A DNA stretch of 64,000 nt from Thermoplasmata archaeon (GTDB lineage Archaea; Thermoplasmatota; Thermoplasmata; Lutacidiplasmatales; UBA184): positions 3,664 through 67,663 of the forward strand of contig JAKIWQ010000001.1 in assembly GCA_022749935.1 (NCBI GenBank), read 5' to 3'. Shown here one piece after another: positions 1-15,957 of this stretch (positions within the stretch are counted from its first letter, which is position 1; each line of letters opens with the position of its first letter). The notes below the pieces were generated by a model. That model was not told where the DNA came from, did no database searches, and worked only from the letters and a program-made list of their open reading frames with translations. The translations under genes were made by a program, and so were the position numbers.

Positions 1-125
1 CCCATGAACCGGAGCCCCACGGCCGTGGTACCTGTGGGGGACCCCGTCCGAAGGGTGCCCGTGGAGACGGGGCCCATCCACGACCTGCTCGGAGGGGTTC
101 GATCGACCCACTCCGCGCGAAAGGG

Positions 126-581
126 CTACCGGCGGTCGTCGCTCGATGGTCGAAGGGCAGGCCAAAAAGCGCCGATCATCAGTGCGTACGTGACGAATAA
201 GGGGGACATCGCCACGACGATCGGACCGACCGAGGCGATGAGAGCCACCCAATTGGTGACAAATTCTGTCAAGAGCTGGACGGCCAGATCGCCGACGACC
301 AGGCCGGCGACCGTTGCGACGCCCAGGGACCAGGTGAACCCACCCCAGCCGAGTGTGCTACACCACGGCGTGCCCACGTGTCGCGCCTCGTTCTTCAGGC
401 CGTTGAAAAAGTTCCCGAACGCGAGGACGACCACACCTCCGACCGGCAACGCGATCCAGAAAGGGGCCGCCCCAGACCCTCCACCCCCCGTTGCAATGCT
501 AAGAGCGCCGGTACCCGCGGTACCTCCGACCCAGAACAGAACGCCGAGCCATGCCCACCCACGCGTGGATGGGATCGGCAT
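126..581 (-). pseudogene. Membrane protein (about 4 TM helices), 5' end split off by IS630
   Basis: Hydrophobic ORF MPIPSTRGWAWLGVLFWVGG... Removing the IS and one TA copy restores the in-frame ATG GTC GAA CCA GCT AGG ATG CCG (MVEPARMP) from the ATG at 1766. Confidence 0.6.
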
Positions 582-583
582 CC

Positions 584-1752
584 TAGTGCCGCTTCTAGCC
601 AGGTAGTTCGACATCCCGACCGAAAGAGCTAGTGCCGGGGAGCGCATGCTCCCCGAGCGTGGTGCGCCGCGTTCGATCGATCTCCAACGAGGAAGGGACG
701 AAGCTCGCCCGACTCTGCCGCCACCCCAGCGATGCCATCGAGCTCCACCGAGCGATGGTGATCCTCTCCAGTGCCCAGGGGTTCACTCCGCCCTACATCG
801 CCCGACTCGTGGGCTACTCCCCCGACTGGGTTCGGACCCTCATTCGAGAGTTCAACCTCCACGGGTTCAAGATGCTCAAGCCGAACTGGAAGGCCGGGGG
901 GAACTGGAAGTTCACTCAGGAGCAGAAGGACCAACTGGTGGCGCTCGCCACTCGCCGGCCGAGGGACCTCGGCCTCCCCTACTCCCAGTGGTCCCTTTCA
1001 CGACTGAGGGACGAGGCGAGGAACCAGCGTATCGTCGACTCGATCTCGATCGAGTGGCTTCGCGTCGTGCTCGACGAGGCGGACATGAGTCACCAGTCGA
1101 TCAAGAGCTGGAAGCAGTCCAGTGACCCCAAGTTCGAGGAGAAACGGAAGCGGATCGACCGGCTCACTCACAAGAAACACAACCCTCCGGTCGTGCTGAG
1201 CATGGACGAGATCGGTCCAATCTCCCTTCAGCCCCATGGAGGTCAGGGGTGGTTCCGGTCGGGCCACCCCGAGCGGATCCCCTCCACCTACAAGCGACTC
1301 AAGGGCACTCGGTATCTCTACCTCACCCTCAACGTCTACCACCAACAGCTGAGCGGTCGATTGTATCGGCACAAGGGAGGAGAGCCGTGGCTGGATTACG
1401 TCCAGCGAGAGGTAGAGCGGTACCCGAAGGACGAGGGGATCTACCTAATCCAGGACAACCTGAGCGCCCACTGGACCCCCGAAGTGCGAGAGTGGGCGAG
1501 GAACAACCGAGTGACCTTGGTGGCCTCGGCGACCCAGGCCAGTTGGATGAACCCGGTGGAGAGCCACGCAGGCGACCTCCAGAAACTCGTGCTGGCCGGG
1601 TCGAACTATAGCTCGTGGACCGAGGTTCGGAGAGAGGTAGCCCGAGCGATCTCCTTTCGGAACCGAGAGCGCGGGCTACGCAAGAAGCGGTTCCGCGACG
1701 CTCAGATGGGCAAATGGAAAATCCACCGACGACCTATCTGGAAGCGGCACTA
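584..1752 (+). mobile_element. IS630-family insertion sequence with TA duplication at a CTAG site
   Basis: Left end ctagtgccgcttctagccaggtagt (583-607) matches the reverse complement of the right end, ctagtgccgcttccagataggtcgt (1729-1753). TA at 584-585 and 1751-1752. Encloses the transposase. Confidence 0.9.
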
Positions 1753-1753
1753 G
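632..1753 (+). CDS. IS630-family transposase (start may be GTG at 659 or 662)
   Basis: N-terminal HTH region and DDE motifs SMDEIG, IQDNLSAH, MNPVESH. Single ORF without a frameshift. Confidence 0.92.
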   Translation: MPGSACSPSVVRRVRSISNEEGTKLARLCRHPSDAIELHRAMVILSSAQGFTPPYIARLVGYSPDWVRTLIREFNLHGFKMLKPNWKAGGNWKFTQEQKDQLVALATRRPRDLGLPYSQWSLSRLRDEARNQRIVDSISIEWLRVVLDEADMSHQSIKSWKQSSDPKFEEKRKRIDRLTHKKHNPPVVLSMDEIGPISLQPHGGQGWFRSGHPERIPSTYKRLKGTRYLYLTLNVYHQQLSGRLYRHKGGEPWLDYVQREVERYPKDEGIYLIQDNLSAHWTPEVREWARNNRVTLVASATQASWMNPVESHAGDLQKLVLAGSNYSSWTEVRREVARAISFRNRERGLRKKRFRDAQMGKWKIHRRPIWKRH

Positions 1754-1830
1754 CTGGTTCGACCATGTGGAAGTCAAGGAGATCTTGCGGACGCGTCCAT
1801 CCGAGTGGAAGGAACGTGTGGTGCTGTGAA

Positions 1831-4800
1831 GTGACGCGCACACGGAGTCGCGCCCAAGGTAATCGACGGCGCCCAACTGCGGTTGTCATAGTGGCCGTGC
1901 TCGCATTCTCTGTGGTGTGGGTGACGGGGCAGGGACAACCCTTAGGCCCGATTGCGCCCGCAGGGGGGCCCGCCTCAATCCTAGGCGAATCCTTCGCAAC
2001 TAGAGGGTCTCTCCCGACGACCGATTTTGATCGGAGCCACTCCGCACTCACCCGGTGGATCCCCACTTCTACCGCCTACACGCTCGATCCACTCAATGCA
2101 ACCCTCTTGCAAGGCGAAATCAATCCACCCTCTCCGGGGTACTCGCAGGCCGTACTGGATGTTCCATCGCTCGGGGAGTTTGTCGTAGGAGACTCCGCGG
2201 GAGATTTCGCCTATGTCATCAATGCGAGCTCAGGCCACGAAATTCGAGCCATAAACCTCGGTCCTCCGAGCTTGCAGTTTTACGGAAGCGACCCGATCGG
2301 TTTCGCATTCAATCCGGCCAAAGGGCTGCTCTACGTTTCGCTTCTCGGTGACAGTTCGGTTGCGTTTGTCAATCTCTCTTCGGGGAATGTGCTAATGAAC
2401 CTCGCCCTCCCCGGTCATCCGTACGGGGTCGTCTTCGATGTAGCGGACAATCAACTCTACACGACTAACGACACCGGGGTGTTCGCTCTTAACGGGACGA
2501 CGGGTGCGGAGATCGGGTTCTTGGCAATCCATTGGGGTGTCACGCCCATAGTGATCGATCCATTAACGGACACCCTCCTAACCGCCGACAGCGGAAACAG
2601 CACGGTTTACGTGGTCAACATTTCAACATTTAGTGTGACCACAAGATTCTACACGTCGCATAACGGTGGTGGCGTTGACCCAACCGCGTTGATTTTCGAC
2701 CCTTATACGAAGCAGGTTTACACGGCCGATCAGGACGGAAATGTCAGCGTAATCAATGCCGAGACTTACCAACTCAATGCCACAACACCTGAGATAAATC
2801 TAGGCGGGTATCCCAACTCACTCGCCATCAACCCCGTCCGTCACGAAATCTACGTCAGTAGTTGCCATCAGTTCGGGTTCCGGTCCTGCGTATTCTACGA
2901 TTCCAACGATTCCGTGGCGAGCTACACCCTTCCCAACTCATGGCCGGGATGGCTCGCCTACGACGCCCCGACCAAGCACTTGTTGATCGACAACAACAAC
3001 GACACGCTTTACCTTTTCAACGGCTCGAACGACCTACAGGTCGGTTTCGTGCCGATGGTCACCTCGTACCTAGGGGGCGTACTCGACCCCTCAAACGGGC
3101 GCGAATACGTCGCGACGCCAGCGCTCGGAGGGGTATGCGTGCTACCAGGGACGGTCACGGTCTTGATGCCTGGCCCGGAGCCTTCCTTCGTCGCGACGGT
3201 ACCGGTCGGGGACGGGCCGAGCCAGGTGGCATACGACTCTGCCGACGACCGAGTCTTCGTCACGAATTACTGCTCAAACTCAGTGACAGTGATCGACCCT
3301 ACGAATGACTCCATACTCCGGGCTAGTATCCCAGTAGGCTCCGAACCATACGGAGTCGCCTACGACTCTCTCAACGACACGATCTGGATTGCGAACTACA
3401 ACTCACGGAACCTGACCGTACTGAATGGATCGACGCTCGCGACTGTTCGGACAGTCACCCTCCCGCAAGGGTATCCATATGACTTGGCAATCGATTCGAT
3501 TTCCCAGTCGGTTTTCGTCTCTGACATTTTAGGCAACTCTGTCACTGTGGTGAATTCGACCACCTACACCATCTCAGTTTCATCGATTCCCGTCGGATCC
3601 AGCCCCCAGGGGTTGCTTTACGATCCCCAGAACGGAGACGTCTATGTCGCGAATGGTGGCTCCAACAACGTCACAGTACTGAATGCGGCAAACCGGAGTG
3701 TGGCCGGGTCCATCCGTACGGCAGGGGGGACCACAGCTCTAGCCCTCGACCCGATCGACCACCTTGTGTTTGCCACGGACGCGGGGGGAAGTCGAATCGT
3801 CGTCATCGACGCCCTTGACAATCAGGCGGAATTTCCGTCTCTTCCGGCCTCGGGAGAGCCGCAGGGCGTTGTGTACGTCCCGAACGACCACCAGTTGGAC
3901 GTGCTGAATTTCGGTGCCAATGCGATCAACATTCTTGCCAACGTCCCGACGCTTTCAAACTTCACAGCGATCCCAGCTCAAACTGAAGTGGGCGACCCGT
4001 TCGCATTCTCTGTCGCGGCTTCGAACGGCACTCCTCCCTACGCATTCTCGTACTCTGGATTACCGCCTGGCTGCGCATCGGCCGACAGTATCGTCCTCGA
4101 GTGCACACCAACCCTCCCCGGCCACTTCGTTGTGACACTGACCGCGGTTGACTCGGCGGGCTACTTCTGGTCCACCAGTGTCAACGTGTCGGTATGGACC
4201 CACCTAGGGTCCGGAAACCTCAGCCTGACGCCCTCGACCATCGACTTGGGGATGACCTCGGACCTAGTCCTCACAGGCGCGGGTGGAGTTCCTCCGCTCA
4301 ACTACTCGTACCAGGGACTCCCGACCGGTTGCGTTTCGTCCAACAATTCCACGTTGAGCTGCAAGCCCACGGAGGCGGGCATTTTCACTGTGGTTGGGAC
4401 GGTGACAGACAATCTGGGAGTGGTCACCGTCGCTGGGACGGATCTCGTTGTCGATCCGCTTCCTCAGGTGGAAGCTTTCGTCGCCAACCCTTCGACTGTT
4501 CCTGTGAACTCGTCCTTCCTCCTCCTCGCGAGTGTGTCTGGGGGCACCCCCCCTTTCAACTACTCGTACGACGGCCTCCCGCCCGGCTGCCACTCCTCTG
4601 ACTCCACCGAACTGGAGTGCGTACCGACCGTTCCGGGGAGTTACACAGTCAGGCTCACTGCGAGCGACTCCCTCGGGGAGAGTGTGAACGGGAGCCTACC
4701 GCTCATCATATTGTCCTCACCGGTCGCGACGCCCCCTCCCCAGATCATCGCTTTCTTTGCAGACCCGTCGACGGTGACCATCGGAACTAATGTCACTCTC

Positions 4801-5169
4801 TACGTTATCCACACGGGTGGGACCCCTTCCTATTCCCTGGGTTGGGCGGGGCTTCCAGGTGGTTGTACGGCGAACACTCAAACATCCTCCACCATCACAT
4901 GCCGTCCCACCCAGGTCGGGAACTTCACGCTTCGAGTCAATCTAACTGACTCGCTCGGTCGATCGGTCGAGGACCGGACATCCTTGACAGTGCTTCCGGT
5001 CGAGGTTAACGCGAAGGTTCCCCCTTCTGCCTCGGTGGTTTCAGAACTGACCCTCGCGTACGTTGCGTTTGCAGCCGCTGCCATTGGGGGCGTAGGCGGG
5101 GCGGTAGTTGCGGGTCTTGTGTCCCGGCGCAAACCAGAACCGGCGAAATCCGTGCCTCCCCCTAGATAG
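1831..5169 (+). CDS. Membrane-anchored surface protein: two YVTN/YncE beta-propellers, 4 Cys-containing Ig/PKD-like repeats, C-terminal TM
   Basis: Basic plus hydrophobic signal after GTG 1831; repeated VGxxPxxxxYD...YVxN..SN.VTVI blades; four Y/W-x-GLP-x-GC repeats; TM followed by SRRK; many N-x-S/T sequons. Confidence 0.85.
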   Translation: MTRTRSRAQGNRRRPTAVVIVAVLAFSVVWVTGQGQPLGPIAPAGGPASILGESFATRGSLPTTDFDRSHSALTRWIPTSTAYTLDPLNATLLQGEINPPSPGYSQAVLDVPSLGEFVVGDSAGDFAYVINASSGHEIRAINLGPPSLQFYGSDPIGFAFNPAKGLLYVSLLGDSSVAFVNLSSGNVLMNLALPGHPYGVVFDVADNQLYTTNDTGVFALNGTTGAEIGFLAIHWGVTPIVIDPLTDTLLTADSGNSTVYVVNISTFSVTTRFYTSHNGGGVDPTALIFDPYTKQVYTADQDGNVSVINAETYQLNATTPEINLGGYPNSLAINPVRHEIYVSSCHQFGFRSCVFYDSNDSVASYTLPNSWPGWLAYDAPTKHLLIDNNNDTLYLFNGSNDLQVGFVPMVTSYLGGVLDPSNGREYVATPALGGVCVLPGTVTVLMPGPEPSFVATVPVGDGPSQVAYDSADDRVFVTNYCSNSVTVIDPTNDSILRASIPVGSEPYGVAYDSLNDTIWIANYNSRNLTVLNGSTLATVRTVTLPQGYPYDLAIDSISQSVFVSDILGNSVTVVNSTTYTISVSSIPVGSSPQGLLYDPQNGDVYVANGGSNNVTVLNAANRSVAGSIRTAGGTTALALDPIDHLVFATDAGGSRIVVIDALDNQAEFPSLPASGEPQGVVYVPNDHQLDVLNFGANAINILANVPTLSNFTAIPAQTEVGDPFAFSVAASNGTPPYAFSYSGLPPGCASADSIVLECTPTLPGHFVVTLTAVDSAGYFWSTSVNVSVWTHLGSGNLSLTPSTIDLGMTSDLVLTGAGGVPPLNYSYQGLPTGCVSSNNSTLSCKPTEAGIFTVVGTVTDNLGVVTVAGTDLVVDPLPQVEAFVANPSTVPVNSSFLLLASVSGGTPPFNYSYDGLPPGCHSSDSTELECVPTVPGSYTVRLTASDSLGESVNGSLPLIILSSPVATPPPQIIAFFADPSTVTIGTNVTLYVIHTGGTPSYSLGWAGLPGGCTANTQTSSTITCRPTQVGNFTLRVNLTDSLGRSVEDRTSLTVLPVEVNAKVPPSASVVSELTLAYVAFAAAAIGGVGGAVVAGLVSRRKPEPAKSVPPPR

Positions 5170-5379
5170 GGAAGCGGCCCTTATCGACTCTCAGACCGGC
5201 CCCGCATACTCACGAGGACGTGGGCAACGTCCTCGCCGTCGACCAACCCTCCTGAGACTCTCCTGGGCGACTGGCGTACGGCGGCGTGGTTCAAATCGCG
5301 GTTCGGGTTTTCGGAAGGACCTTCCCCAGGACGGATTGCGTGGGCGTCGGGTCACGATTCACATCAAGACGCCAATTGA
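5170..5379 (+). pseudogene. Start-less remnant homologous to the small ORF at 5948-6316
   Basis: Hand translation ETLLGDWRTAAWFKSRFGFSEG matches DTLSRDWRHAAWFYARFGITEG of 5948-6316. Confidence 0.65.
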
Positions 5380-5746
5380 CGAATCCGTCAAGAAGAAGGC
5401 TGAGAGACGGAGCGTCGACCTGCGGTGTCGGAAAAGTCCTGCGCGGCGTCTAGGGATTCCTGAGGTGGGCGGCCCACTGCCTAACTGACGTGGTCCAGGC
5501 CTTCATGGCCACCGGGTGTTCGTGCGAATCTTCTGTTGTAGTCGGAGAGATGGGGCTGGGCCCGTCGTTCAAAGCGGGCAGTGGCGGAGGCGGTGGCCGG
5601 TGCCGCGTGTCCCGCCCCGTCCGGGTCACAACGGCCCATCGGTTCCCGAAGGAAATGCCAGGTTTGGCGGGCGACAGATTCACCTCCTCGGGGGGTTCGA
5701 ATACTCGCGACGGAACATTTCCACGAGGTGATTAGCGGGGCATGGA
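5273..5746. repeat. Att-proximal arm, copy 1 (homologous to ~12147-12623)
   Basis: Shared blocks gattcacatca, ttgacgaatccgtcaaga, ggttccc.aaggaaatgccagg, gattcacctcctcg, gggttcgaatactcgc, acgaggtgattagcggggcatgga. Confidence 0.9.
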
Positions 5747-5754
5747 GTCGAACC
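5733..5754 (-). repeat. att site: displaced 3' end of tRNA-iMet
   Basis: Reverse complement GGTTCGACTCCATGCCCCGCTA versus tRNA GGTTCAAATCCATGCCCCGCTA. 5723-5746 is identical to 12600-12623 (24 bp). Confidence 0.85.
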
Positions 5755-5947
5755 CCCGGGGGGTTCGAATATCGAGAAAAGTGGGGGACCAGCAGTCCTG
5801 GAGGCCATCACCTCTCGTCTTGGGTTCGGGCAATGACACGACTGGGATACCTTCCAAGAAGCAGCGATAACAATTCGACCCGGGCTAGTTCACTCGATTC
5901 GCCTGGGAACTTCCCACGAGGGCTCCCGGAGCCGTGCGGAGGCCCGC

Positions 5948-6316
5948 GTGGCGTTCCCGGACGCCGACAACGACGAGGAGGACGGGGTCGACTCTCGGCG
6001 GTTCAGCCTCATGGAGATCACGAGCGGCCTCCCAGACGACTCGCGGGAGGCGGATGAGCGCGCTGCGGTGCGGAACCTACCCGACCTGCGCGCTCGCGTG
6101 AAGGCGGCCCGCCCCCTGGTCGCGAGCAGCCCGGGCGTGGCCGATACGCTCTCGCGCGACTGGCGCCATGCCGCGTGGTTCTACGCGCGATTCGGGATCA
6201 CCGAGGGGCAGTTCAGAGGCAAGGGAGCCCTTGGGACTCTCGACCCACTGGCTGAGAAGGGTGCCCTTCGAGGAATCGAAGAAACCTCGAAATCGGGTGT
6301 GGTCCACTGGAGGTAG
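5948..6316 (+). CDS. Small hypothetical protein (DWRxAAWFxxRFG motif)
   Basis: 122-aa ORF. Coding status is supported by two degenerate paralogous remnants nearby. Confidence 0.6.
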   Translation: MAFPDADNDEEDGVDSRRFSLMEITSGLPDDSREADERAAVRNLPDLRARVKAARPLVASSPGVADTLSRDWRHAAWFYARFGITEGQFRGKGALGTLDPLAEKGALRGIEETSKSGVVHWR

Positions 6317-6470
6317 GCGAACTGCCCAAGGGCCGCGGATGGGCCCCTGGCCGCACGCGTATGATATCGGGGAAAGTGCGTCTAACCCGTTCGTGTAATC
6401 GTTCTCGCCTGTTTTGCGCTCGAGCGAACAGATTTGAGGGGGAGAGGCATGCTCCCGGTTGGATGTGCCG

Positions 6471-8609
6471 ATGGCGGTAAGTCGCCGGAGGAGACAGGCC
6501 ACGTCTCGTACCCTTTGCCTTGTTGTCCTGATTGTTGTAGTGGCGTCTTCCGTAGCAATGGGCAACACGACTCGTAAGGGCTCGCTTGCCGCCCCAACAT
6601 CCCCTTCGTCACTTCTTCGGGCTGAGGACAACAACTCGTCATCCTCACTGCTGTTACCCTCTTTATCCATCTCCTCATTTGGAACTTGGCCGATGTACGA
6701 TCAAAACCCCTTCCGCACAGGCGATCAGGGCATGGAGCGAACCCTAGCCCGGACGAACGCCAGTCTGCTCACAATTTCTCCCCACTTCCCATTCGCCCCC
6801 TCCTACCTTCGGGCGGTCGCCGGCTCAGTTGCCGTGGCGAACGGCACGGCGTACTTCCCTTCCGCCGGCGGGAACCTCGTAGCATTGAACGTGACGACAG
6901 GGACTATTCATGGGAGTAGCTCATGGGTTGCCAACACCACTCACTTCGGGATTATCAACTGCTCCGGATCGCCAAGCGGGCTAGTTTCTACCCCGGCCAT
7001 TTGGGGGAATCTTGCCATCGTAGGAACCGGGGGTGCACTCGGAGCCCAGGGGTACGGATGGGTACGCGCATACAACGTTACCGGCCCGAACCCAGGCACG
7101 GCCCGGTGGTCCACAAACCTAACGGGGAGTGTCGGCGGTTCCTGGGCAGGTGCTTACACCTGGTCGAGCCCGGTGATCGCGGGTGGTGATGCCTACATTG
7201 GGCTCGCTAGTGGTTGTGACGCTCCTCTTGTGCAGGGCGCTCTCTTTCAGCTCAATGCCACGACCGGAAACATCCTCAACGTTGCACATATGGTCTCAAC
7301 CGGCCAGACGGGCGCTGGAATCTGGAGCTCGCCGACTGTGGACCTTAAGAACCACACAGTCTGGGTAACCACCGGCAATGAGAACAAGCACCAGATCTAC
7401 CAACAATATGCCCGTTCTCTCATCGCGTTAAATACCAGCACCTTCCAAGTCATCGGGCACGCCCAGGAAGGGACCCCTGGGACCGACCAAGACTTTGGAG
7501 CCGGCCCGACCCTGTTCTCGACTTCATCGGGGGTTCCTATGGTTGTCGCGGTCAACAAGAACGATTCTGCCTATGCCTTCGCCCGGAGCAACTTCACGGG
7601 CAACATGTCGCCGAACGGAGGGGTGAAGGGATGGGTGTGGGAGAAGTACATCGGCGGACCAACGACCCCGGGGGCGATCGCACCCGCTGCATTTGGAGAC
7701 AGCCAACTTTACTTCGCTGGGGGGCCGGAAGGGTCACAGGCTGGCAGCGTATGGGCCCTCGCCCCGAGCGGGGCCACAATCTGGCATGTCGGCGTGGGGG
7801 GTTACATCCGGGCCGGGGTAACGTATGCGGACGGGCTGGTCATCGCCGCAGCAATCGGTTCTTCGAACAACGCCTCTTCTGTTATCATTCTGAACGCTAC
7901 CAACGGCAGGCTGATCGCTGAGTACAACGCGAGCGGGCAGGTCAACGGGGAGCCGGCAGTGGCGGACGGCCGCGTCTACTTCGGAACGGCGTGGGGAAAC
8001 GCCGGTGGGCCGGACTTCTCGGCTCCCGGCTCGCTCTACGCTCTTGAGATCCCCATCCACGCTCAACCCAATGCATACCCGGGGACCGTGCCTACTCCGG
8101 TGGTTGTGTTCGACGGCCTCGGTATCGGCGGGTCCCCTCCTTATTCCTGCGTATGGATCTTTGGCCCTGGGGCTAGGTCGAATCTCTGTGGCTTGGTGAG
8201 CTATTCGTACACCAGCACCGGGGTTTACGAAGCCAGCCTCTGGGTGAATGATTCGGTAAGCGAATCGTCCAGGTGGATCTATACTATTCAGGTCGTTGAC
8301 AACGGGGGATGCCTCTTAGGGCATCCGTGTTCTAATTGGATTCTCGTTGGGAACTTCACGACGGGCGGCTGTTACGCTCAGCCCCCCTCGCTATTTTGTC
8401 CAGTGAATGGGCTGCTAGACTTCGCTTCGTACAGTTCGGGGGGGACGCCCCCCTATACGTATCTCTGGAACTTCGGAGACAGGACACAATCGGAACTCCC
8501 CACCCCGATTCACCAGTACTTGGAACCGGGTGAATACACGGTTACGCTGACCCTTACTGACAAGAATCACCTACAGGCCTCGACACAGTTCGTGGTCACG
8601 GCGACCTGA
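6471..8609 (+). CDS. Secreted PQQ-like (BamB-type) beta-propeller protein with C-terminal PKD domains
   Basis: Signal RRRR plus hydrophobic helix; WPMY...RTG; SSPV/STPA/SSPTV blades; DQDFGAGP; PKD motif YLWNFGD...HQYLEPGEYTVTLT. Confidence 0.85.
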   Translation: MAVSRRRRQATSRTLCLVVLIVVVASSVAMGNTTRKGSLAAPTSPSSLLRAEDNNSSSSLLLPSLSISSFGTWPMYDQNPFRTGDQGMERTLARTNASLLTISPHFPFAPSYLRAVAGSVAVANGTAYFPSAGGNLVALNVTTGTIHGSSSWVANTTHFGIINCSGSPSGLVSTPAIWGNLAIVGTGGALGAQGYGWVRAYNVTGPNPGTARWSTNLTGSVGGSWAGAYTWSSPVIAGGDAYIGLASGCDAPLVQGALFQLNATTGNILNVAHMVSTGQTGAGIWSSPTVDLKNHTVWVTTGNENKHQIYQQYARSLIALNTSTFQVIGHAQEGTPGTDQDFGAGPTLFSTSSGVPMVVAVNKNDSAYAFARSNFTGNMSPNGGVKGWVWEKYIGGPTTPGAIAPAAFGDSQLYFAGGPEGSQAGSVWALAPSGATIWHVGVGGYIRAGVTYADGLVIAAAIGSSNNASSVIILNATNGRLIAEYNASGQVNGEPAVADGRVYFGTAWGNAGGPDFSAPGSLYALEIPIHAQPNAYPGTVPTPVVVFDGLGIGGSPPYSCVWIFGPGARSNLCGLVSYSYTSTGVYEASLWVNDSVSESSRWIYTIQVVDNGGCLLGHPCSNWILVGNFTTGGCYAQPPSLFCPVNGLLDFASYSSGGTPPYTYLWNFGDRTQSELPTPIHQYLEPGEYTVTLTLTDKNHLQASTQFVVTAT

Positions 8610-8645
8610 GTCGAAGGCCCCACACGACGCAGGGCCGCGTGGGAA

Positions 8646-11600
8646 ATGTCGATATCCGACATCGGTGGACCGCATGGGAGAAGGAACGGACGTCGCGGAG
8701 GACGGTCATTTGATGCGTGTCGAACCTGGCGCGTACGTGGTACGGGGTGGGTACAAGCCATCCAGTCGACCCTTTTGATCATCCTTCTGGTTTCCTCCAT
8801 CCCTTGGGGGACGATTCACTCACGGCCCTTTGATGTCCCCTCTAGCGGAGAGCGATCAGTCTCGACCTCGGCCGAGGTCGCGGCTGTTGCTCCGACTCAC
8901 TCGGTACATGCTGAAGGGCGTACCGAGGTGACAAACTCGCGGTGGGCCCCTACCACAACCGCATACACCTTAGACCCGCTCAACAGGACTTTGATCCAGG
9001 GAGCGTTCAGCCCTCCCGCTCCTGGGTATCCGTGGGGCGCGCTCGACATCCCGTCACTTGGTGAAGTCGTTCTGGGCGACAGCCAAGGCGGCGATGTGTA
9101 CCTGATAAATGCCACTAACGGCGGTGAAGTACGTGCATTGCCTGTGGGCAACACGCCGGACGCATTCGCCTATGATCCGACCACAAGAATTCTGTACTGC
9201 ACCCTGGCAGGAGGCGAAGATGACTCGATTTCGTTCGTGAATCTGTCCACCGGGGAGGTCGAAAGGACGTTGACAGGGATCCACAACGCCGGAGACTTGC
9301 TGTACGATTCATCGAACAATCTACTCTATGTAACGAACTGGAGCGGACTGCTTGAATTGAATGGGTCGACAGGCTCGGTCGAATCCTACCTACCCATTCA
9401 TTGGGGGGTCAAACCGCTCGTCCTCGACCCTCTCACTGGGTCTCTGTTCGTAGCAGATGCTGGCAATGGCACAGTCTACATAATCAACACGAGCCTGAAT
9501 CAGGTAAAATCGAATCTGACGATCCATAACAGTGGCGGCGGCTCGGCGGTTGCGATGCTCTTCGATCCGCACAGCCGGCAGATCTACACGGCCGACTACG
9601 GAGACGGAAACGTGTCTGTTATCGACGCTACTTCTATGAAGGTAAACCGGACCACCCCCGAAATCAATTTAGGAGGCGTGCTCACCTCCCTTGCCCTGAA
9701 CCCCACGACCCATGAGGTGTATGTCAGTAACTGCGCCCCGCCCCCCCTCAACTTTCGAACCTGTATCATCTACGACTCAAATGACACTCTCGCGTCCCAG
9801 ACACTCCCGGACTCCTTTCCGGCCTTCCTCGCGTACGACTCGGCCTCGAGTCACCTGCGGGTCATCATCAACTACGAGTCGAGCTATGGGTTCAGCGGCT
9901 CGGACGACCGCCAAGTTGGTTTCGTATCGATCGTTACCTCCTACCTCGGGGGGGCGTTGGATTCAGCGAACGGCCTCGAATACATTGCGACGCCGGCGCT
10001 GGGGGGGGTTTGCGTGCTCCCGGGGACGATCACCGTCCTGGATCCAAGCCCGAAACCTTCCTTCGTCGCTTCTCTGCCAGTCGGAGATGGTCCCAGCCAG
10101 GTGGCCTACGACTCAGCCGACGGTCGAATCTTTGTCACGAATTACTGCTCGAATTCGGTGAGCGTGATTGACGCGACGAACGATTCGATAGTCCGCCTTG
10201 ATCTCCCGGTCGGCTCCGAACCGTACGGGATCACCTTCGACTCTCTCAAGGACACAATTTGGATTGCGGACTACAATTCACAGAACCTGACAGTGCTCAA
10301 CGGGTCCACGCTTGCGACGGTCCGGACGGTCACCTTGCCGCTAGCATATCCGTACGGTCTGGCAATCGACCCAACCGCACACTCGGTGTTCGTCTCGGAT
10401 ATTGTCGGCAACGCGGTGACCGTAGTGAATTCGACCACCTATAGCATTTCAACCCTGATGATCCCAGTCGGATCTAGCCCCCAAGGGATCTTTTACGACC
10501 CCCAGAATGGAAATGTGTATGTTGCGAATGGTGGCTCGGACAACATCACGGTAATCAATGGCACGAACGATAGTGTAGTCGAGTCAATCGCGACCGCCGG
10601 AGGGACGACGGCCCTCGCCCTTGATCCGATCGACCACCTGATCCTCGGCACCAACGCGGGGGGAAGTCGGATCATCGTGCTCGACGCACTCACAAACCTA
10701 GCGGAGTTCTCGAGTCTTCCAGCCTCCGGGAACCCGCAGGGGATCGTCTACGTCCCAACGGACCACCAGGTTGACGTGTTCAACTTCGGAGCCAGCGCCA
10801 TCAACATTCTGGCCGACGCTCCGACCCTTTCCAACTTCACTGCGAACCCAGCCCAATCCGAGGTTGGGACCCTGCTTACCTTCTTCGCTATCGCCGCCAA
10901 CGGCACTCCTCCCTACGCCTTCTCGTACTCCGGACTTCCCCCCGGATGCGCATCGACCGACAGCGTCGTCATCGCATGCACGCCCACCCTCCCGGGCCAG
11001 TTCGTTGTGACCCTCACCGTCGTTGACTCGGCGAGCTACTTCTGGTCCGCCACTCTCAAAGTATCTGTGTGGACCCACTTAGGGTCCGGAGCCCTGAGCG
11101 TCAGACCCCCGACGATCGACTTGGGGATGACGACCACGTTCGCCCTCACCGGGGCGGGTGGAGTACCGCCGGTCACTTACGCCTACCAGGGCCTCCCGTC
11201 CGGCTGCTCCTCCTCCGACAGTCCCTTCGTGAACTGCACCCCTGCGGGGGTGGGCAGTTTCGTTGTGGTTGGGTTCGTGACGGACAATCTCGGTGTGGTT
11301 TCTGTCGCTGCGACTGGTCTTAGGGTGAATCCGCCGCCTCTGGTCGAGGCGTTCGTCAATACCCCCACTACCATTCTGGTGAACTCGTCCGTCCTCCTCC
11401 TCGCAAGTGTCTCTGGGGGTACTGCCCCCTTCAGCTACTCGTATCGCGGGCTCCCACCCGGATGCTCCTCCACCGACTCCACCGCACTGGGCTGCACGCC
11501 TACCGTTCCGGGAAACTTCACCGTCACCCTCACCGCGAGTGATTCCCTAGGGCGAAGTGTGAACGCGAGCCTACCAATCACCGTCTTGCCCCCGCCGGTC

Positions 11601-12041
11601 GCGACACTTCCTCCACAGATCTCGGCCTTCTTTGCGGACCCATCGACGGTGACGATCGGAACTAATGTCACTTTCTACGTGCTGCACACAGGTGGGACTC
11701 CCTCCTATACCCTGAGTTGGACGGGGCTCCCCGCTGCTTGTCTGGTGAACAATCAAACCGCCTCCACCCTAACATGCCGCCCCACTCAAGTCGGTAGTTT
11801 CTCGGTCCGGGTCAATCTGACCGATGCGCTCGGTCGATCAGTGGAGAGCCGGACCTCCCTAACGGTGCTTGCGGCCGAGCCAAACGCCACGGTTCCCCCT
11901 GCCCCACCCGAAATCTTGGGATTGACTCTCGTCTACCTTGGGGTGATAGCCGCAGTTATCGGGGGCGTCGTGGGGGCAATCGCGACGCTTCTCATCTCGC
12001 GTGGCAGACAGAAGCCAAGGAATGATACCATGTCGACGTAG
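8646..12041 (+). CDS. YVTN beta-propeller/Ig-repeat surface protein, paralogue of 1831-5169 (start uncertain)
   Basis: Collinear with 1831-5169 (AYTLDPLN, IHWGV, ATPALGGVCVLPGT, FFADPSTVTIGTNVT); four GLP-x-x-C repeats; C-terminal TM. Confidence 0.85.
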   Translation: MSISDIGGPHGRRNGRRGGRSFDACRTWRVRGTGWVQAIQSTLLIILLVSSIPWGTIHSRPFDVPSSGERSVSTSAEVAAVAPTHSVHAEGRTEVTNSRWAPTTTAYTLDPLNRTLIQGAFSPPAPGYPWGALDIPSLGEVVLGDSQGGDVYLINATNGGEVRALPVGNTPDAFAYDPTTRILYCTLAGGEDDSISFVNLSTGEVERTLTGIHNAGDLLYDSSNNLLYVTNWSGLLELNGSTGSVESYLPIHWGVKPLVLDPLTGSLFVADAGNGTVYIINTSLNQVKSNLTIHNSGGGSAVAMLFDPHSRQIYTADYGDGNVSVIDATSMKVNRTTPEINLGGVLTSLALNPTTHEVYVSNCAPPPLNFRTCIIYDSNDTLASQTLPDSFPAFLAYDSASSHLRVIINYESSYGFSGSDDRQVGFVSIVTSYLGGALDSANGLEYIATPALGGVCVLPGTITVLDPSPKPSFVASLPVGDGPSQVAYDSADGRIFVTNYCSNSVSVIDATNDSIVRLDLPVGSEPYGITFDSLKDTIWIADYNSQNLTVLNGSTLATVRTVTLPLAYPYGLAIDPTAHSVFVSDIVGNAVTVVNSTTYSISTLMIPVGSSPQGIFYDPQNGNVYVANGGSDNITVINGTNDSVVESIATAGGTTALALDPIDHLILGTNAGGSRIIVLDALTNLAEFSSLPASGNPQGIVYVPTDHQVDVFNFGASAINILADAPTLSNFTANPAQSEVGTLLTFFAIAANGTPPYAFSYSGLPPGCASTDSVVIACTPTLPGQFVVTLTVVDSASYFWSATLKVSVWTHLGSGALSVRPPTIDLGMTTTFALTGAGGVPPVTYAYQGLPSGCSSSDSPFVNCTPAGVGSFVVVGFVTDNLGVVSVAATGLRVNPPPLVEAFVNTPTTILVNSSVLLLASVSGGTAPFSYSYRGLPPGCSSTDSTALGCTPTVPGNFTVTLTASDSLGRSVNASLPITVLPPPVATLPPQISAFFADPSTVTIGTNVTFYVLHTGGTPSYTLSWTGLPAACLVNNQTASTLTCRPTQVGSFSVRVNLTDALGRSVESRTSLTVLAAEPNATVPPAPPEILGLTLVYLGVIAAVIGGVVGAIATLLISRGRQKPRNDTMST

Positions 12042-12061
12042 CAGATGCCCGGCCTGTAAAG

Positions 12062-12244
12062 GCTGGTCAACCGGACTCGGACGTGTAGGCGGCCCGGGTG
12101 TAGGCAGCGACCCTCCAAAGTCTGTCCGGACCCCTCGCGCACGAGCGGCGCAAGGCGGCCTGGTTCTCCGTGCGGTACGGGATTATGGAGGGACAGTACC
12201 GAAGAGGGGGTTCCTTCCACGTCGGATCCCGATTCACATCATGA
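12062..12244 (+). pseudogene. Second remnant of the small DWR/AAWF gene, with in-frame stops
   Basis: Hand translation AARV*AA...HERRKAAWFSVRYGIMEGQYR matches RARVKAA...RDWRHAAWFYARFGITEGQFR. Confidence 0.65.
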
Positions 12245-12623
12245 CGCCGATTGACGAATCCGTCAAGAGAACGGCGGAAAGCCAGAGCCTAGATTGCCGG
12301 TGTGGGAAGACCCCCTTCACGAGGCTCATGGATTCCTGACTTCGGAGGCCCTTGGCCTGATAGCCGTAGTCCACGCCTCCATGGTCACCTGGGGTCTTGT
12401 GCCACTCTGCTATCATGGTCGGAAAGATTGGTGTGGCCCCGTCCGTCCAAACAGGCTGTGACGTAGGTCGTGGCCGGTGCCACTGGCTCCCGCCCCGTGC
12501 GGGTTCTACAGGCCTGACGGTTCCCTAAGGAAATGCCAGGTCTAGCGGGCGTCGGATTCACCTCCTCGAGGGTTCGAATACTCGCAACGGGGCGATTCTA
12601 CGAGGTGATTAGCGGGGCATGGA
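12147..12623. repeat. Att-proximal arm, copy 2
   Basis: Homologous to 5273-5746; ends in the tRNA-iMet 3' end. Confidence 0.9.
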
Positions 12624-12712
12624 TTTGAACCATGGATCTACGGGTTATGAGCCCGTCGGGATTTCAGGACGGCCGGGATTCCCGGACGTTTTCCTGACTA
12701 CCCTACCCCGCT
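12610..12712 (-). tRNA. tRNA-iMet(CAT) with a 28-nt D-loop intron (12663-12690)
   Basis: AGCGGGG/CCCCGCT acceptor stem with A1:U72; ACGGG-CTCATAA-CCCGT arm with three G:C pairs; T-arm CATGG-TTCAAAT-CCATG; insert folds as CAGG[AAA]ACG...CGT CCTG[AAA]. Confidence 0.93.
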
Positions 12713-12871
12713 GCGCGGCGCCCATGGAGGGCTCCGTATATGAGCTTCAACCTCGGCGGAGCGGACTCGATGGCCTCTCGATGGGTTCCTGTCGAAAGGG
12801 TCGTGCGTCGACCTCGTAGAATCACCGGGTGACCACAATCCCATTTACTCCCCCGTCGCGAAGTGAAGGGC

Positions 12872-13906
12872 ATGCGGGTGGGTGCATTCTCCGTCGTCGA
12901 GTCCCGATCGGGCGCCTCGGCCGAACCGCTGGCGGAGCGCTTCGACGAGCTCCTCCGATTGGTCGAGACCTCGGAGCGCGCCGGGCTTACGTCCTTCTGG
13001 GTCGCGGAACATCACTTTCAATCGAGTGGATTGTGCCCATCTCCGCCCGTGTTGCTGGCGGCCGCCGGCCAGCGAACCGGGTCCATCCGGCTCGGGTCCC
13101 TCGTGTGCGTGCTCCCGTTTCATCGGCCGATCGACGTGGCCGAGGAGTACTCCCTGCTCGACGTGCTCCTTCACGGGAGGCTCAACCTGGGGGTCGGCTC
13201 CGGATACGTGCCGCTCGAACTCGACGCCTACGGGGTCCCGGGGGCGTCCAAGCGGGAATGGTTCGATCGAAACCTGGCGGAGGTACACGCGGCCCTCCGG
13301 GGAGAGGCGATCGGGATTCCCGGGGGCGGGTCGGTGCGACTAAACGTGCGCTCTCCTCAGATGCCCCATCCCCCGATTTGGGTAGCGGCCCAGCGTCGAG
13401 AAAGCGTTCCTCACGTCGCAAGGGCGGGACTGTCCATCGCGTTCCTCCCGTACGCGACGTTTCAAGACCCTACCGAACTCGGAGCGTCGATCAGGGAGTA
13501 CCGCAGGGCCCTGCCGGAGGGGGTCCAGGGGACGGTCTCCGTCGCGATGCCGGTCTACGTCGGAGAGGACACCGGACGGGCGACCCGGGCCCTCGATCGT
13601 CACCTCCAGAGTCGCCCGTCGTCGCAACAAGGGTTCTACGAAGGGGCCGTGCGCCGGGGTCCTTCCCTCATTTCGGCCGCCGCGGTCGAGCGGGCCGGAT
13701 TCGCCCTGTTCGGCCCATCGTCCGATCTCCCCGACCGTCTCGAGGAGTTTGACCGGCTCGGCGTGGACGAGATCCTGGGAATGTACGACATTGGGGACCT
13801 GCCGGCCGAACGGGTCGTCCAGTCGATCCGACGGATTGGCTCGGTCTGCCCGGGGGCCGTCGGCCTCGCGCCGATGGGGGTTCGTTCGACCGCCGCTGCG
13901 AGATAG
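12872..13906 (+). CDS. LLM-class (luciferase-like) flavin-dependent oxidoreductase
   Basis: FWVAEHHF, PSPPVLLAAA, RLNLGVGSGY, PPIWVAA motifs. Confidence 0.9.
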   Translation: MRVGAFSVVESRSGASAEPLAERFDELLRLVETSERAGLTSFWVAEHHFQSSGLCPSPPVLLAAAGQRTGSIRLGSLVCVLPFHRPIDVAEEYSLLDVLLHGRLNLGVGSGYVPLELDAYGVPGASKREWFDRNLAEVHAALRGEAIGIPGGGSVRLNVRSPQMPHPPIWVAAQRRESVPHVARAGLSIAFLPYATFQDPTELGASIREYRRALPEGVQGTVSVAMPVYVGEDTGRATRALDRHLQSRPSSQQGFYEGAVRRGPSLISAAAVERAGFALFGPSSDLPDRLEEFDRLGVDEILGMYDIGDLPAERVVQSIRRIGSVCPGAVGLAPMGVRSTAAAR

Positions 13907-13952
13907 AAGAAGGGGCGGGGAAGGGGTTGGCTCCGGCGGTGTCGGGATCGAC

Positions 13953-14111
13953 CTACGGGTGCTTGGCCATTTTGAGGATTTCTGCCTCAGGCACATCCTT
14001 CTGGTGGGTGTGTTTGAGGTGCCACTGAACCGTGGCGACCAGTTCCTTCTGGTCCTTCGAGACGACTTCGAACCCGTCGGCACACTCGACTTTCATCCTT
14101 CCGCATCCCAT
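13953..14111 (-). CDS. Small DUF1059-like metal-binding protein
   Basis: KVECADGFEVVSKDQKELV...HLKHTH pattern; start at 14111 or 14096. Confidence 0.7.
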   Translation of the reverse strand: MGCGRMKVECADGFEVVSKDQKELVATVQWHLKHTHQKDVPEAEILKMAKHP

Positions 14112-14239
14112 GGTTTCACTCTGCCCACCGTGCGGTGGACGAGGGGGAGTAGGACTCCGCCGGGATATAGGGGCTAGTAGTGGCCCCGAATGACAACAAC
14201 CCGCGCTCTGCGGCGAAGGCGAGCCCCTCCGGCGGGCGA

Positions 14240-15106: not shown

Positions 15107-15372
15107 GGGAACTCAAACCTCGCCGCCGGGGACCCGAGTAGACGGTTGTCATTACAAAAGCTACGGGGTCACTCGATATCGAACGTCCCCCTCAGGCGCA
15201 GCCCGAGGGCCCGGATCGGGCGACGCGCACATCGGGCGCGCGATGGAGGCTCCGTGGTGCATCGCGACGGAGAGTCGGAAGACTCGCACCGTGCCGACCC
15301 GGTACGCCCGCCGAGTTTCACAGGACCGGGGGATGACCCCCCATCCGGAGGTTCGACGGGCCCGCGAATGTT

Positions 15373-15762
15373 TCAGCCCTTGGGGGGCTGGTACAGACCC
15401 ACCGTGTTTCCTTCGCTGTCCTTGAAGTAGCCCGTGAAGCCCATGCTGCCGTCTCCGATGGGCTGTTTCTTCTGGATGATCTTTCCCCCATTCTTCTCGA
15501 CCGACTTCTCGGCCGCGGTCAGATCGTCCACGATGATCGTCACGACCGGATGCTCAAGAGGGCCCCCGCGTTTCCCGATCCCGCCACCGATGGACCCAGG
15601 TTTGGTAGGCATTCCCTGGTCATCGACGGGTCCGGTGCTGACCATCGTGTAGTCCATCCCCGGCATCTCGTTCATCTTCCAGCCGAACGTCGTCGAGTAG
15701 AACTTTCGGGCGCGTTCGGGTTTGTCCGCGGGTATCTCAAAGTGGCCCACTTCTCCGGTCAT
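15373..15762 (-). CDS. VOC/glyoxalase-family protein
   Basis: HFEIPADKPERARKFY...FGW, FKDSEGNTVGL. Confidence 0.9.
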   Translation of the reverse strand: MTGEVGHFEIPADKPERARKFYSTTFGWKMNEMPGMDYTMVSTGPVDDQGMPTKPGSIGGGIGKRGGPLEHPVVTIIVDDLTAAEKSVEKNGGKIIQKKQPIGDGSMGFTGYFKDSEGNTVGLYQPPKG

Positions 15763-15957
15763 GGCTCTTCGGGCGAGGGAGTACCTCGGCGATTAAAGGA
15801 GTTCGGAGAGAGGGTGAAACGCCCGCCCCCGACCAGGCCGAAGAGTGGAGTCTGAGACCGCAGGCGCGTCCGGGTCGTGCGATGTCGCGCGGATCCTGGC
15901 CGCGGCGGAGACATCGTGGTCGACCCGGGGGTCGACCGGGAAGTACGAAGCCTAGGG

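Follow-up and report, generated by a model that had tools for sequence, protein, structure and literature searches.

Cis-mobilisable elements (CIMEs) and their tandem accretion at ICE attachment sites were reportedly described by Pavlovic et al. in 2004 for ICESt1 and ICESt3 of Streptococcus thermophilus. The locus analysed here, which lies in a stretch of 64,000 nucleotides from the genome of a Thermoplasmata archaeon (hereafter the window), resembles them in that att-bounded units devoid of recombination and transfer genes form tandem arrangements with related elements at a single site, but it differs in its archaeal host, in the use of a tRNA 3' end as the site and in the absence of an integrase-bearing partner at that site. 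Integrons are comparable as well, being recombinase-less gene units piled at one site, whereas the units described here are multi-gene and have no adjacent IntI-type gene, attI, Pc promoter or attC-type folded sites.

In Dehalococcoides, multiple islands stand in tandem downstream of the single-copy RNA gene ssrA and are each delimited by a ∼20 bp repeat of its 3' end, beside which lies a conserved motif that is unmatched in the gene, and 15 islands without integration modules were suggested by the authors to be cis-mobilisable, as reported in passages of PMC3146451. According to these passages, the islands use a serine integrase, a tmRNA target and reductive dehalogenase cargo; our locus shares with them the tandem units, the RNA-gene-end repeats and the integrase-less members, but is associated with what is likely a divergent tyrosine integrase, a tRNA-iMet target and surface-protein cargo. 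In the tycheposon islands of Prochlorococcus, parts of a preprint (bioRxiv 10.1101/2020.12.28.424599) describe successive insertions at one tRNA that displace older elements inward, the retention of partial tRNA copies, degraded elements and cargo, and PCR evidence for excision and tandem junctions; here the host and the integrases are others, and the evidence comes from sequence data. Archaeal elements with tyrosine recombinases likewise re-use one site and form arrays, and some integrated elements have no integrase, presumably through loss, as stated in main-text passages of PMC6563490 and PMC8371274, which contain no description of a Thermoplasmata or genus-wide tRNA-iMet hot spot or of one-to-few-gene units with conserved junction motifs. 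As bacteria are already known to have integrase-less tandem units at tRNA or tmRNA genes, and archaea to have integrated elements in tandem arrays, the ‘new system’ seen at this locus in a first-pass annotation was too strong a term; most likely, a site-specific insertion of a kind already well known in microbes left the gene blocks at the tRNA.

Two surface-protein gene blocks behind an initiator tRNA gene

Two related surface-protein gene blocks were found in tandem behind tRNA-iMet, neither of which encodes a recombinase (Table 1), and the ORF list, Pfam searches and an alignment of the two copies bore out the gene order given in the first-pass annotation. Unit B (5747-12599), consisting of a small gene, a PQQ/PKD protein gene, YVTN-2 and an arm of ∼470 bp, is bounded by both copies of a 24 bp core. 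To its left, behind an IS630 element, lies unit A, a homologous half-unit (YVTN-1 plus arm) with a proximal att only; the IS630 element is located directly upstream of YVTN-1, where the left part of unit A and its distal att would be expected. The YVTN-1 start is probably the ATG at 1765 of the listed ORF (1615-5169), and its product is predicted to carry a signal/TM segment at the N-terminus and a TM anchor at the C-terminus. Arm A contains a perfect hairpin (TTGACG-AATC-CGTCAA) and the motif CCTCGGGGGGTTCGAATAC. The gene at the left edge of the window is the sole left-side gene in common with the closest relative, G007, at this locus; its homologue there lies 6.1 kb from tRNA-iMet.

Table 1. 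Features of the tRNA-iMet locus (positions in the window)
Feature	Position	Strand	Basis or remark
Left-flank gene, 200 aa, no Pfam family	4..606	+	ORF list, Pfam
IS630-family element, HTH + DDE_3 transposase (ORF 632-1753), 25-nt terminal inverted repeats	583..1753	+	Pfam, repeat search
YVTN-1, beta-propeller (YNCE/NHL) + PKD surface protein	1765..5169	+	Pfam
Small-gene remnant A (C-terminal motif DWRxAAWF..RFG), out of frame, no start codon	5254..5334	+	Homology
Arm A, non-coding	5341..5722	.	74% identical to arm B
Distal att copy	5723..5746	+	24/24 identical to proximal copy (12600-12623)
Left-end motif, G/C palindrome then TTCGAATATC	5747..5776	+	Layout comparison with congeners
Small gene, 122 aa, no known family	5948..6316	+	Pfam, homologues
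PQQ-like beta-propeller + PKD protein, 716 aa, N-terminal signal/TM segment	6459..8609	+	Pfam
YVTN-2, 1131 aa	8646..12041	+	63% identical overall to YVTN-1
Small-gene remnant B, same truncation as remnant A	12128..12204	+	Homology
Arm B, tRNA-proximal end of unit B	12216..12599	.	Alignment with arm A
Proximal att copy	12600..12623	+	Overlaps tRNA 3' end
tRNA-Met(CAT), initiator type, ∼29-nt D-loop insert (intron)	12610..12712	-	ARAGORN after insert removal

The tRNA gene, whose 3' end is at its low coordinate, is missed by ARAGORN at default settings and miscalled as tRNA-Trp by intron-allowing ARAGORN, and its Rfam tRNA match is only partial (23.6 bits). Upon in silico removal of 22-35 nt of the D-loop insert (392 variants), 259 of 311 tRNA calls were tRNA-Met(CAT). 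We take the A1:U72 pair and three G:C pairs in the anticodon stem to mark it as an initiator. Beyond the tRNA, which itself forms the head of the array, the next genes encode a luciferase-like monooxygenase and a TrmB regulator, and no IntI-type gene, attI or promoter of the integron kind was found at this head.

The 24-mer ACGAGGTGATTAGCGGGGCATGGA, comprising 10 nt of trailer and the final 14 nt of tRNA-iMet, occurs exactly twice in the window, the distal copy being 6877 bp from the genuine tRNA copy, and represents the att-type duplication of the tRNA 3' end that had been proposed. No third core site with up to three mismatches was present in the window, nor did any arise in 100 shuffles, and a search of 1-13000 for a further degenerate core yielded none. 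As in tRNA-targeted genomic islands, the insert lies between direct repeats of the tRNA 3' end and leaves an intact tRNA; it is absent at the site in relatives (G007 has other content there), and its composition is atypical, with 59-60% G+C in the units against 67.6% in the genome (the lowest 1-2% of 5 kb windows); low G+C is also frequent among surface-protein genes.

Pfam detected no recombinase, replication or transfer domains in 5747-12599, a genome search with PF00589 found no recombinase there, and no tblastn hit in 1-16000 of the window was better than E = 4 when two integrases from the family typical of the genus served as queries. No integrase gene was therefore detected inside the element beside its att site, and the same searches supported the proposal that the units are integrase-less and revealed no decayed integrase in 5747-6470, a finding that would have spoken against it. 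Unit B accordingly has the constitution of a CIME, being flanked by att on either side and free of genes for recombination or transfer. A tyrosine recombinase at the distal end, which the first-pass annotation had advised looking for, was not found in the 3.6 kb of contig left of the window. As regards casposons, a Pfam scan of four ORFs in 1615-12041 detected neither Cas1 nor a polymerase domain, and no long terminal inverted repeats were found.

The tRNA-iMet site across the genus

The site was compared in 150 congeneric genomes (149 besides this one), 133 of which keep the tRNA as judged by its 3' 13-mer. Ten of the 150 (G000, G004 with four copies, G010, G108, G123, G139, G144, G160, G164 and G165) showed at least two same-strand copies of this 13-mer on one contig, 0.7-18 kb apart. 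The exact repeats measured 13-24 bp, and in all ten genomes the similarity to the tRNA stops within 3 nt of CATGG. No integrase was found between the copies in eight of them, and the cargo differs in each, whereas G108 and G010 bear elements of 17.9 and 15.8 kb, respectively, at the site; the ends of these two elements are 97% identical, their host flanks are without any match, and genes for a primase-helicase, a resolvase and a methylase are present in that of G010. Accretion was seen directly in one pair: G144 and G108 have in common a 1.8 kb unit with an older tRNA-end copy (92% identity), and only in G108 is the newer 17.9 kb element placed between this unit and the tRNA. These data support the tRNA-iMet end as a recurrent integration site with stacked units of varied cargo, a genus-wide hot spot, and the locus illustrates how, in an uncultured lineage of archaea, surface-protein genes are gained and stacked at one tRNA gene. 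The first-pass annotation had suggested looking in related MAGs for more units with different cargo; such units were found, none of them bearing the arm of the window (0/149).

In G108, an ORF of 503 aa that begins at the tRNA gave no Pfam or PDB sequence match. The top Foldseek matches of its structural model were all tyrosine recombinases (XerA, IntI, XerH, lambda Int and Cre; E from 6e-5), and the protein retains a YVLR..LGH..RY box, suggesting that it is likely a very divergent tyrosine integrase; the G010 copy of the gene is interrupted by stops. Matches to this family were present in 85 of the 150 genomes, directly beside tRNA-iMet in G108, G010, G074, G017, G053 and G051. Such elements would escape standard island and provirus finders, as neither Pfam nor a sequence search of PDB picks up the family. 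Among the integrases of the present assembly (95% complete), none belonged to the tRNA-iMet-adjacent subgroup; the two members of the family found there are located at tRNA-Arg genes and are 54-57% identical to the G108 integrase.

The integrase-bearing elements of six congeners use the same core as unit B, and its left-end motif resembles theirs. In layout and spacing this motif corresponds to the sequence after the tRNA-end copy in the integrase-bearing element of G053, and the layout recurs in G108/G010 and G139, the palindrome-plus-TTCGAATAT arrangement being that found at the far ends of integrase-bearing elements. The motif GTATTTGAACTCTCCGAGAG, which abuts the core in those elements, is missing from the tRNA-side end of unit B, the trailer of arm B differs from the genus-common trailer GCCTCGCCAGAAGC, and the arm has no match in the congeners' integrase-bearing elements.

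Origin of the two units

On balance, we favour the view that 1754-12623 is a genomic island accreted at the initiator tRNA 3' end via serial site-specific integration. Elements with tyrosine integrases would recombine with the tRNA gene through a short site that is identical to its 3' end and trailer, whereby the tRNA would be restored and a copy of its end would remain on the far side of the insert. We infer that unit B may have entered as a circle through an integrase acting in trans, and that it would have been the last to enter, so that the homologous unit A, the older of the two, with YVTN-1 and arm A, would have been moved away from the tRNA; the left part of unit A would afterwards have been lost, and the IS630 element now stands in its place. 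Since units A and B are both integrase-less and share the YVTN gene, the truncated small gene, the arm and the att, this layout should be older than the divergence of the two, and a unit without its own integrase must then have been copied or integrated at least once, as in a cis-mobilisable element. The units are probably now fixed remnants with cell-surface proteins as cargo. This view draws on the att repeat, the repeated use of the site in the genus, the accretion in G108, the left-end layout, the N-terminal grouping of YVTN-1, the tRNA-Cys case of G144 described below and the low G+C; counting against it are the restriction of the arms to two copies in register, the C-terminal grouping of the YVTN genes, the lack of a distal att in unit A and of GTATTTGAACTCTCCGAGAG at the tRNA side of unit B, and the absence of a tRNA-iMet-type integrase from the assembly.

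The homology between copy A (about 2032-5754) and copy B (about 8919-12631) keeps a constant register (offset 6875-6878), and the two arms are 74% identical over 385 columns of the pairwise alignment and 79% over the last 124, having diverged as proposed next to an identical core. Possible, though improbable, is that one integrase-less unit was duplicated in situ by unequal exchange between the distal and proximal att copies of sister chromosomes, through an integrase or homologous recombination, and that after long divergence foreign DNA replaced one YVTN 5' part. The register held across 3.7 kb, the same truncation of the small gene in both copies and the restriction of the arms to this genome would fit such a duplication, as would the C-terminal YVTN part, which groups both copies together (support 83/88) as local duplication or gene conversion would. 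However, the arms differ by ∼26%, yet the core, 10 nt of which are unconstrained trailer, shows no difference and forms the longest exact run in the 3749-column alignment (the next being 20); the probability that these 24 named positions all match at the local 79% identity is P = 0.0035. Furthermore, over its N-terminal third YVTN-1 clusters with the orthologues of G068 and G144 (support 95/99), and a clade of YVTN-1 and YVTN-2 in this third was rejected (AU p = 0.008, the group having been named after the tree was seen), which makes a simple local duplication unlikely. An old event would also predict a retained arm in congeners, but none of the 149 other genomes keeps even one; as no further copies were found elsewhere in this genome or, using two exact patterns, in metagenome contigs, this arm belongs to no known element family. 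Fixed synteny across relatives, the mark of an old local duplication in the first-pass annotation, was not observed either, as the synteny varies.

The integron-like reading of that annotation, an active platform at which integrases acting in trans excise and re-insert non-autonomous cassettes at tRNA-iMet as a shuffling store of surface variants, appears very doubtful for this locus. It draws on G004, in which three stacked units of 2059, 3952 and 672 bp contain essentially one ORF each (for NHL, PKD/SBP-like and DUF3237 proteins of 522, 1254 and 156 aa, respectively), and on the common end of ∼85 nt after the core, and for some units a common arm of ∼160 nt ahead of the next core, that accompany differing cargo in G004, G123 and G165. 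The junction pattern GCATGG-N13-TTCAAATC occurred nine times in seven of the 149 other genomes and not at all in its reversed control, at or beside mapped tRNA-end copies (1.8 kb from one in G108), and G004 and G123 have a single, strong, XerA-like PF00589 match each. Against it, the only homologues of the G004 cassettes elsewhere are distant (65-71%) and none is at tRNA-iMet, the window units are multi-gene with a non-coding region ahead of each YVTN gene, no integrase gene or attI/attC-like layout adjoins them, and decaying, serially integrated elements would give the same picture. Single-ORF cassettes with attC-type imperfect palindromes were not found, unit B containing three genes and a remnant, and the junctions in the window are tRNA-end copies with flanking motifs. 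In a broader and still quite unlikely form, the tRNA-iMet 3' end would serve the whole genus as a gene-capture platform, at which integrases encoded elsewhere might move recombinase-less units of one to few genes, excising and re-inserting them by way of conserved ends that extend ∼85 nt behind the core and about 160-470 nt ahead of it; a cell could then keep and exchange stacked surface and accessory proteins, in an archaeal, tRNA-anchored counterpart of the integron. Should the small integrase-less units turn out to be mobile, they would count as archaeal analogues of cis-mobilisable elements or of integron cassettes; otherwise, the locus is an ordinary decaying island.

An ordinary segmental duplication without site-specific recombination, in which the 24 bp identity survived by chance, is highly improbable and already disfavoured: a run of at least 24 anywhere in the 577 nt non-coding part is not extremely rare (P = 0.016, permutation), but this run falls exactly on the tRNA end, stops, to the nucleotide, where the repeats of integrase-bearing elements in other species stop, and is followed by the end motif of those elements.

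With respect to the cargo, the gene order PQQ/PKD followed by YVTN is conserved in G068, G078 and G144, and homologues of the small gene adjoin YVTN-type genes, before or after, in this genome (contig C12), G068 and G010. In G144, the PQQ/PKD and YVTN pair is located between a 13 bp repeat of the tRNA-Cys 3' end and tRNA-Cys itself, with an integrase just outside.

The repeated end of tRNA-iMet and the two units

The 24-bp repeat claimed in the first-pass annotation (hereafter the core) was confirmed, with exactly two copies in the window, no further site at up to three mismatches, no degenerate core elsewhere within positions 1-13000, and no site in 100 shuffles. As tRNA-iMet lies on the minus strand, its 3′ end points to the low coordinates, where the cassettes lie, and the position of the 24-mer on the tRNA resolves it into 10 nt of trailer and the terminal 14 nt of the tRNA. 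This tRNA was absent from the default ARAGORN output, was miscalled as tRNA-Trp when introns were allowed, and matched the Rfam tRNA family partially, at 23.6 bits and so under the gathering score, because its D-loop carries an insert (intron) of ∼29 nt that folds as a hairpin. After in silico removal of D-loop sequence (22-35 nt, 392 variants), 259 of the 311 tRNA calls were tRNA-Met(CAT); the A1:U72 pair and the GGG/CCC anticodon stem presumably mark it as the initiator. Among congeners the hairpin varies in sequence, with its pairing kept.

Direct-repeat families spaced 6875-6878 and tblastx homology between approximately 2032-5754 and 8919-12631 relate unit A (YVTN-1, a small-gene remnant and the non-coding 'arm' that precedes the core) to unit B (5747-12599) across both YVTN genes, the remnant, the arm and the core, while the stretch 5747-8900, with the small gene, the PQQ/PKD gene and the start of YVTN-2, is without counterpart on the left. 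In global alignments the arms are 74% identical (79% over the last 124 columns) and the YVTN genes 51-74% at the nucleotide level, and the core (24/24) is the longest exact run of the 3749-column A/B alignment. The probability of a match at all 24 of these positions, given the local identity, is 0.0035, and that of any exact run of at least 24 in the non-coding part is 0.016. The G+C content of the units is 59-60% vs. 67.6% for the genome. Since an IS630-family element ends 11 nt before the probable start of YVTN-1, unit A is left without its left part and without a distal att site. Given its place directly upstream, this element may drive or silence YVTN-1; related IS630 copies adjoin a YVTN module in G068 and a tRNA-end copy in G011, both genomes of the genus.

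Features of the window and of related loci (G numbers, genomes of the genus; C, contigs; L, loci)
Genome	Feature	Position or spacing	Content or context	Source
Window	IS630-family element, ORF	632-1753	HTH + DDE_3	Pfam
Window	IS630-family element, 25-nt inverted repeats	583-607, 1729-1753
Window	YVTN-1, probable start	1765	ATG
Window	YVTN-1 and YVTN-2		YNCE/NHL/lactonase-type propellers + PKD	Pfam
Window	Perfect hairpin of the arms	5375-5393, 12250-12268	TTGACG-AATC-CGTCAA, within a 19-nt block identical in both arms
Window	Core	5723-5746, 12600-12623
Window	Small gene	5948-6316	C-terminal motif DWRxAAWF..RFGI family
Window	PQQ/PKD gene	6459-8609	PQQ_2 + PKD	Pfam
Window	tRNA-iMet	12610-12712, minus strand		Sequence reading
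Own genome	Integrases	C12:105146-106669, C38:2-949	Abut tRNA-Arg(GCG) and tRNA-Arg(CCT)
G000 (own genome)	tRNA-end copies	6877 bp
G004	tRNA-end copies (four)	672, 3952, 2059 bp
G004	Three successive units	L046, C32:7117-13812	NHL-repeat, 522 aa; PKD/SBP-like, 1254 aa; DUF3237, 156 aa	Pfam
G007	Gene behind degenerate tRNA-end copy		SBP_bac_5 protein	Pfam
G010	tRNA-end copies	15.8 kb
G108	tRNA-end copies	17.9 kb
G123	tRNA-end copies; unit	4117 bp	Adenylate/guanylate cyclase-domain protein + cation-efflux protein	Pfam
G139	tRNA-end copies; unit	2265 bp	649-aa protein, no family	Pfam
G144	tRNA-end copies; unit	1789 bp	Alpha/beta hydrolase	Pfam
G160	tRNA-end copies; unit	3582 bp	Adenylate/guanylate cyclase-domain protein + TPR proteins	Pfam
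G164	tRNA-end copies	901 bp
G165	tRNA-end copies	832 bp

tRNA-end copies, junctions and integrases in the genus

The tRNA itself is conserved among congeners, and the 13-mer TAGCGGGGCATGG is present in 133 of the 150 genomes of the genus, with at least two same-strand copies on one contig in 10 of the 150; the genus tallies of the 13-mer, of YVTN and G004-unit homologues and of the integrase family take in the unpublished G019, G147 and G148, the conservation survey of the tRNA takes in G019, and all loci described here come from other genomes. The exact repeats measure 13-24 bp, and in all cases similarity to the tRNA stops no further than 3 nt from CATGG. In eight genomes two exact 13-mer copies lie on separate contigs; four of these genomes hold two full tRNAs (G079, G103, G122 and G132) and three a tRNA-end copy with a junction motif (G053, G011 and G015). 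The 13-mer sites G149:C19 and G015:C182, which lack a junction motif, may be due to chance. A degenerate tRNA-end copy was found in G007, a third, older copy in G108 and an internal degenerate junction in G123.

Sequences following the tRNA-end copies are of two kinds. Type I consists of a G/C palindrome and then, 18 nt past CATGG, TTCGAATAT or a close variant, and was found in the window (5747-5776), G053 and G139, with variants of it in both G108 and G010; type II reads TTCCCCnTTTGG-TTCAAATCC. In the same 150 genomes, the pattern GCATGG-N13-TTCAAATC gave nine matches in seven of the 149 other genomes, located at or beside mapped tRNA-end copies (in G108, 1.8 kb from one), and its reversed control gave none. 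By its type I motif the left end of unit B thus resembles the far ends of elements that bear an integrase; at its tRNA-side end the motif found next to the core in such elements is missing.

Genes for a Prim-Pol/D5_N/DUF5906 primase-helicase, a resolvase-type serine recombinase and a DNA methylase are present in the large element of G010. Between this element and that of G108 the ends agree at 97% identity, with no match between the host flanks, so two species have received the same element. The 503-aa ORF of G108 (L052:4421-5932) starts inside the T-arm of the tRNA and runs into the element, and had neither a Pfam match at E <= 1 nor a PDB sequence match. In Foldseek its AlphaFold model, moderate in quality with a mean pLDDT of 64, had only tyrosine recombinases among the best matches (XerA, IntI, XerH, lambda Int and Cre; E from 6e-5, probability 1.0, low TM scores), and an alignment of six members retains the GLRPG arginine and the YVLR..LGH..RY box. 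This integrase family (460-530 aa) likewise lacks Pfam and PDB sequence matches; it was matched in 85 of the 150 genomes, often in several copies, and every copy examined abuts a tRNA 3′ end. It directly adjoins tRNA-iMet in G108, G010 (broken by stops), G074, G017, G053 and G051; in G011 a different integrase, of the PF00589 + zinc-ribbon type, lies beside tRNA-iMet. The window's own genome has two members, at 54-57% identity with the G108 protein, and no tRNA-iMet-type integrase was found in its assembly (95% complete).

A 1.8-kb unit together with the older tRNA-end copy is common to G144 and G108 (92% identity), and the 17.9-kb element between this unit and the tRNA is present in G108 alone. 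Accretion is thus directly visible here: newer elements enter at the tRNA and push older ones outward, as the accretion model requires.

Integrase-less units and the history of their cargo

Very small units separate the four tRNA-iMet end copies of G004, where units of 2059, 3952 and 672 bp contain essentially one ORF each and the assembly holds a single PF00589 gene, XerA-like. The small units listed in the table (in G004, G007, G123, G139, G144 and G160) have no PF00589 domain, and tblastn with the new family of integrases found nothing in the six searched (in G004, G123, G139, G144 and G160). Copies of the G004 units in other arrays were looked for, and only distant homologues were found, at other loci. 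The unit gene of G007 has a 78% identical paralogue in the window's own genome, in an ABC-transporter operon (C15) unrelated to the tRNA.

Pfam detected no recombinase in the window units, the PF00589 search of the whole assembly yielded three genes, all on other contigs, and tblastn with the G108 and own C12 integrases gave no integrase-family match in positions 1-16000. On the tblastn result the arm was rejected as a decayed integrase. It is not a gene either, given that from one copy to the other all six frames contain stops or frame changes, and not a known RNA, as no Rfam match at E <= 1 occurred in 1-20000 except tRNAs and chance matches; a casposon or transposon origin was rejected, as neither Cas1 nor terminal inverted repeats were found. 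The arm was not found elsewhere in its own genome, and among the 150 genomes of the genus the arm (5320-5722) is confined to its own, the 149 congeners giving two marginal matches (32-39 nt, E ∼8e-4). Two exact patterns searched against metagenome contigs hit 0 and 9 loci, and the nine match only the 19-21-mer itself.

The order PQQ/PKD followed by YVTN is kept in G068 (with a small gene after it), G078 and G144, and G010 has a small gene, a PKD protein, a YVTN-like protein and the small-gene motif in succession. In G144 (L044:1583-8482) tRNA-Cys and a 13-bp copy of its 3′ end enclose the cargo pair in a 6.8-kb stretch, and a 307-aa PF00589 integrase is located ∼230 nt outside this copy; the 13-bp repeat (BLAST E = 0.013 within the locus) is only suggestive. 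Overall identity of YVTN-2 is 63% with YVTN-1 and 58% with the G068 protein. Segment trees comprising the two window proteins and those of G068, G144, G078, G070, G041 and G064 (the orthologue of unpublished G019 was left out) grouped YVTN-1 in the N-terminal third with the G068 and G144 proteins (95/99), left the trio without resolution in the middle, and joined YVTN-1 and YVTN-2 in the C-terminal fifth (83/88). For the N-terminal segment the AU test rejected a window-copy clade (p = 0.008), the group having been named after the tree was seen.

The small gene has no Pfam family and no useful ESM Atlas match (best score 0.80). Its family regularly flanks YVTN/PKD surface-protein genes, also on the own contig C12 (7414-8070) and in G010 (L082, L083), where seven stretches match the remnant part of the query; truncated copies come after YVTN genes.

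Origin of the units and comparison with known arrays

The exact core on the tRNA end, its agreement with the sites that integrase-bearing elements use in congeners, the motif that follows it and the mosaic phylogeny together argue that 5723-5746 is an att site left by recombination of the site-specific kind and that the addition of unit B came after unit A. As the truncated small gene, the arm and the missing integrase are common to both units, the integrase-less layout is older than their split, so that a unit without an integrase was copied or moved in one step at least, which is the defining trait of a cis-mobilisable element. Serial integration leaving integrase-less units is the account that we consider, with considerable reserve, probable. 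In-situ tandem duplication of one integrase-less unit, to which the locally homogenised appearance of the C-terminal YVTN parts lends some weight, seems unlikely, if still to be reckoned with. The same homogenisation speaks against an active cassette platform, as do the presence of only two copies, the restriction of the arms to this locus in all that was searched (own genome, 149 congeners, metagenome contigs) and the absence of a suitable integrase from the assembly, and we regard this origin as improbable. Chance is a very improbable source of the core.

Serial integration has parallels in the portions of the literature consulted. In Dehalococcoides, multiple tandem islands downstream of ssrA are bounded by a 20-bp repeat of that gene's 3′ end, each repeat having beside it a motif without match to ssrA, and fifteen islands without integration modules were suggested to be cis-mobilisable and moved by accretion (PMC3146451). 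For tycheposons, successive integrations at one tRNA are described as pushing older elements into an island that retains partial tRNAs and degraded elements (bioRxiv 10.1101/2020.12.28.424599). Archaeal tyrosine-recombinase elements form arrays via site re-use, and some integrated ones are without integrase, presumably lost (PMC6563490, PMC8371274). The literature searched yielded no description of arrays of this kind in Thermoplasmata, and full papers or supplements may hold cases; the present analysis adds tRNA-iMet as a genus-wide hot spot, an integrase family missed by Pfam, and very small units with conserved junctions.

On the other side of tRNA-iMet, the 5.5 kb up to tRNA-Thr (12713-18206; 65% G+C) encode a luciferase-like monooxygenase, a TrmB regulator and others, and a search of 12713-18180 for a repeated 3′ end of tRNA-Thr found none. 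This stretch is variable among relatives, the gap between the two tRNAs in G139 being ∼0.9 kb.
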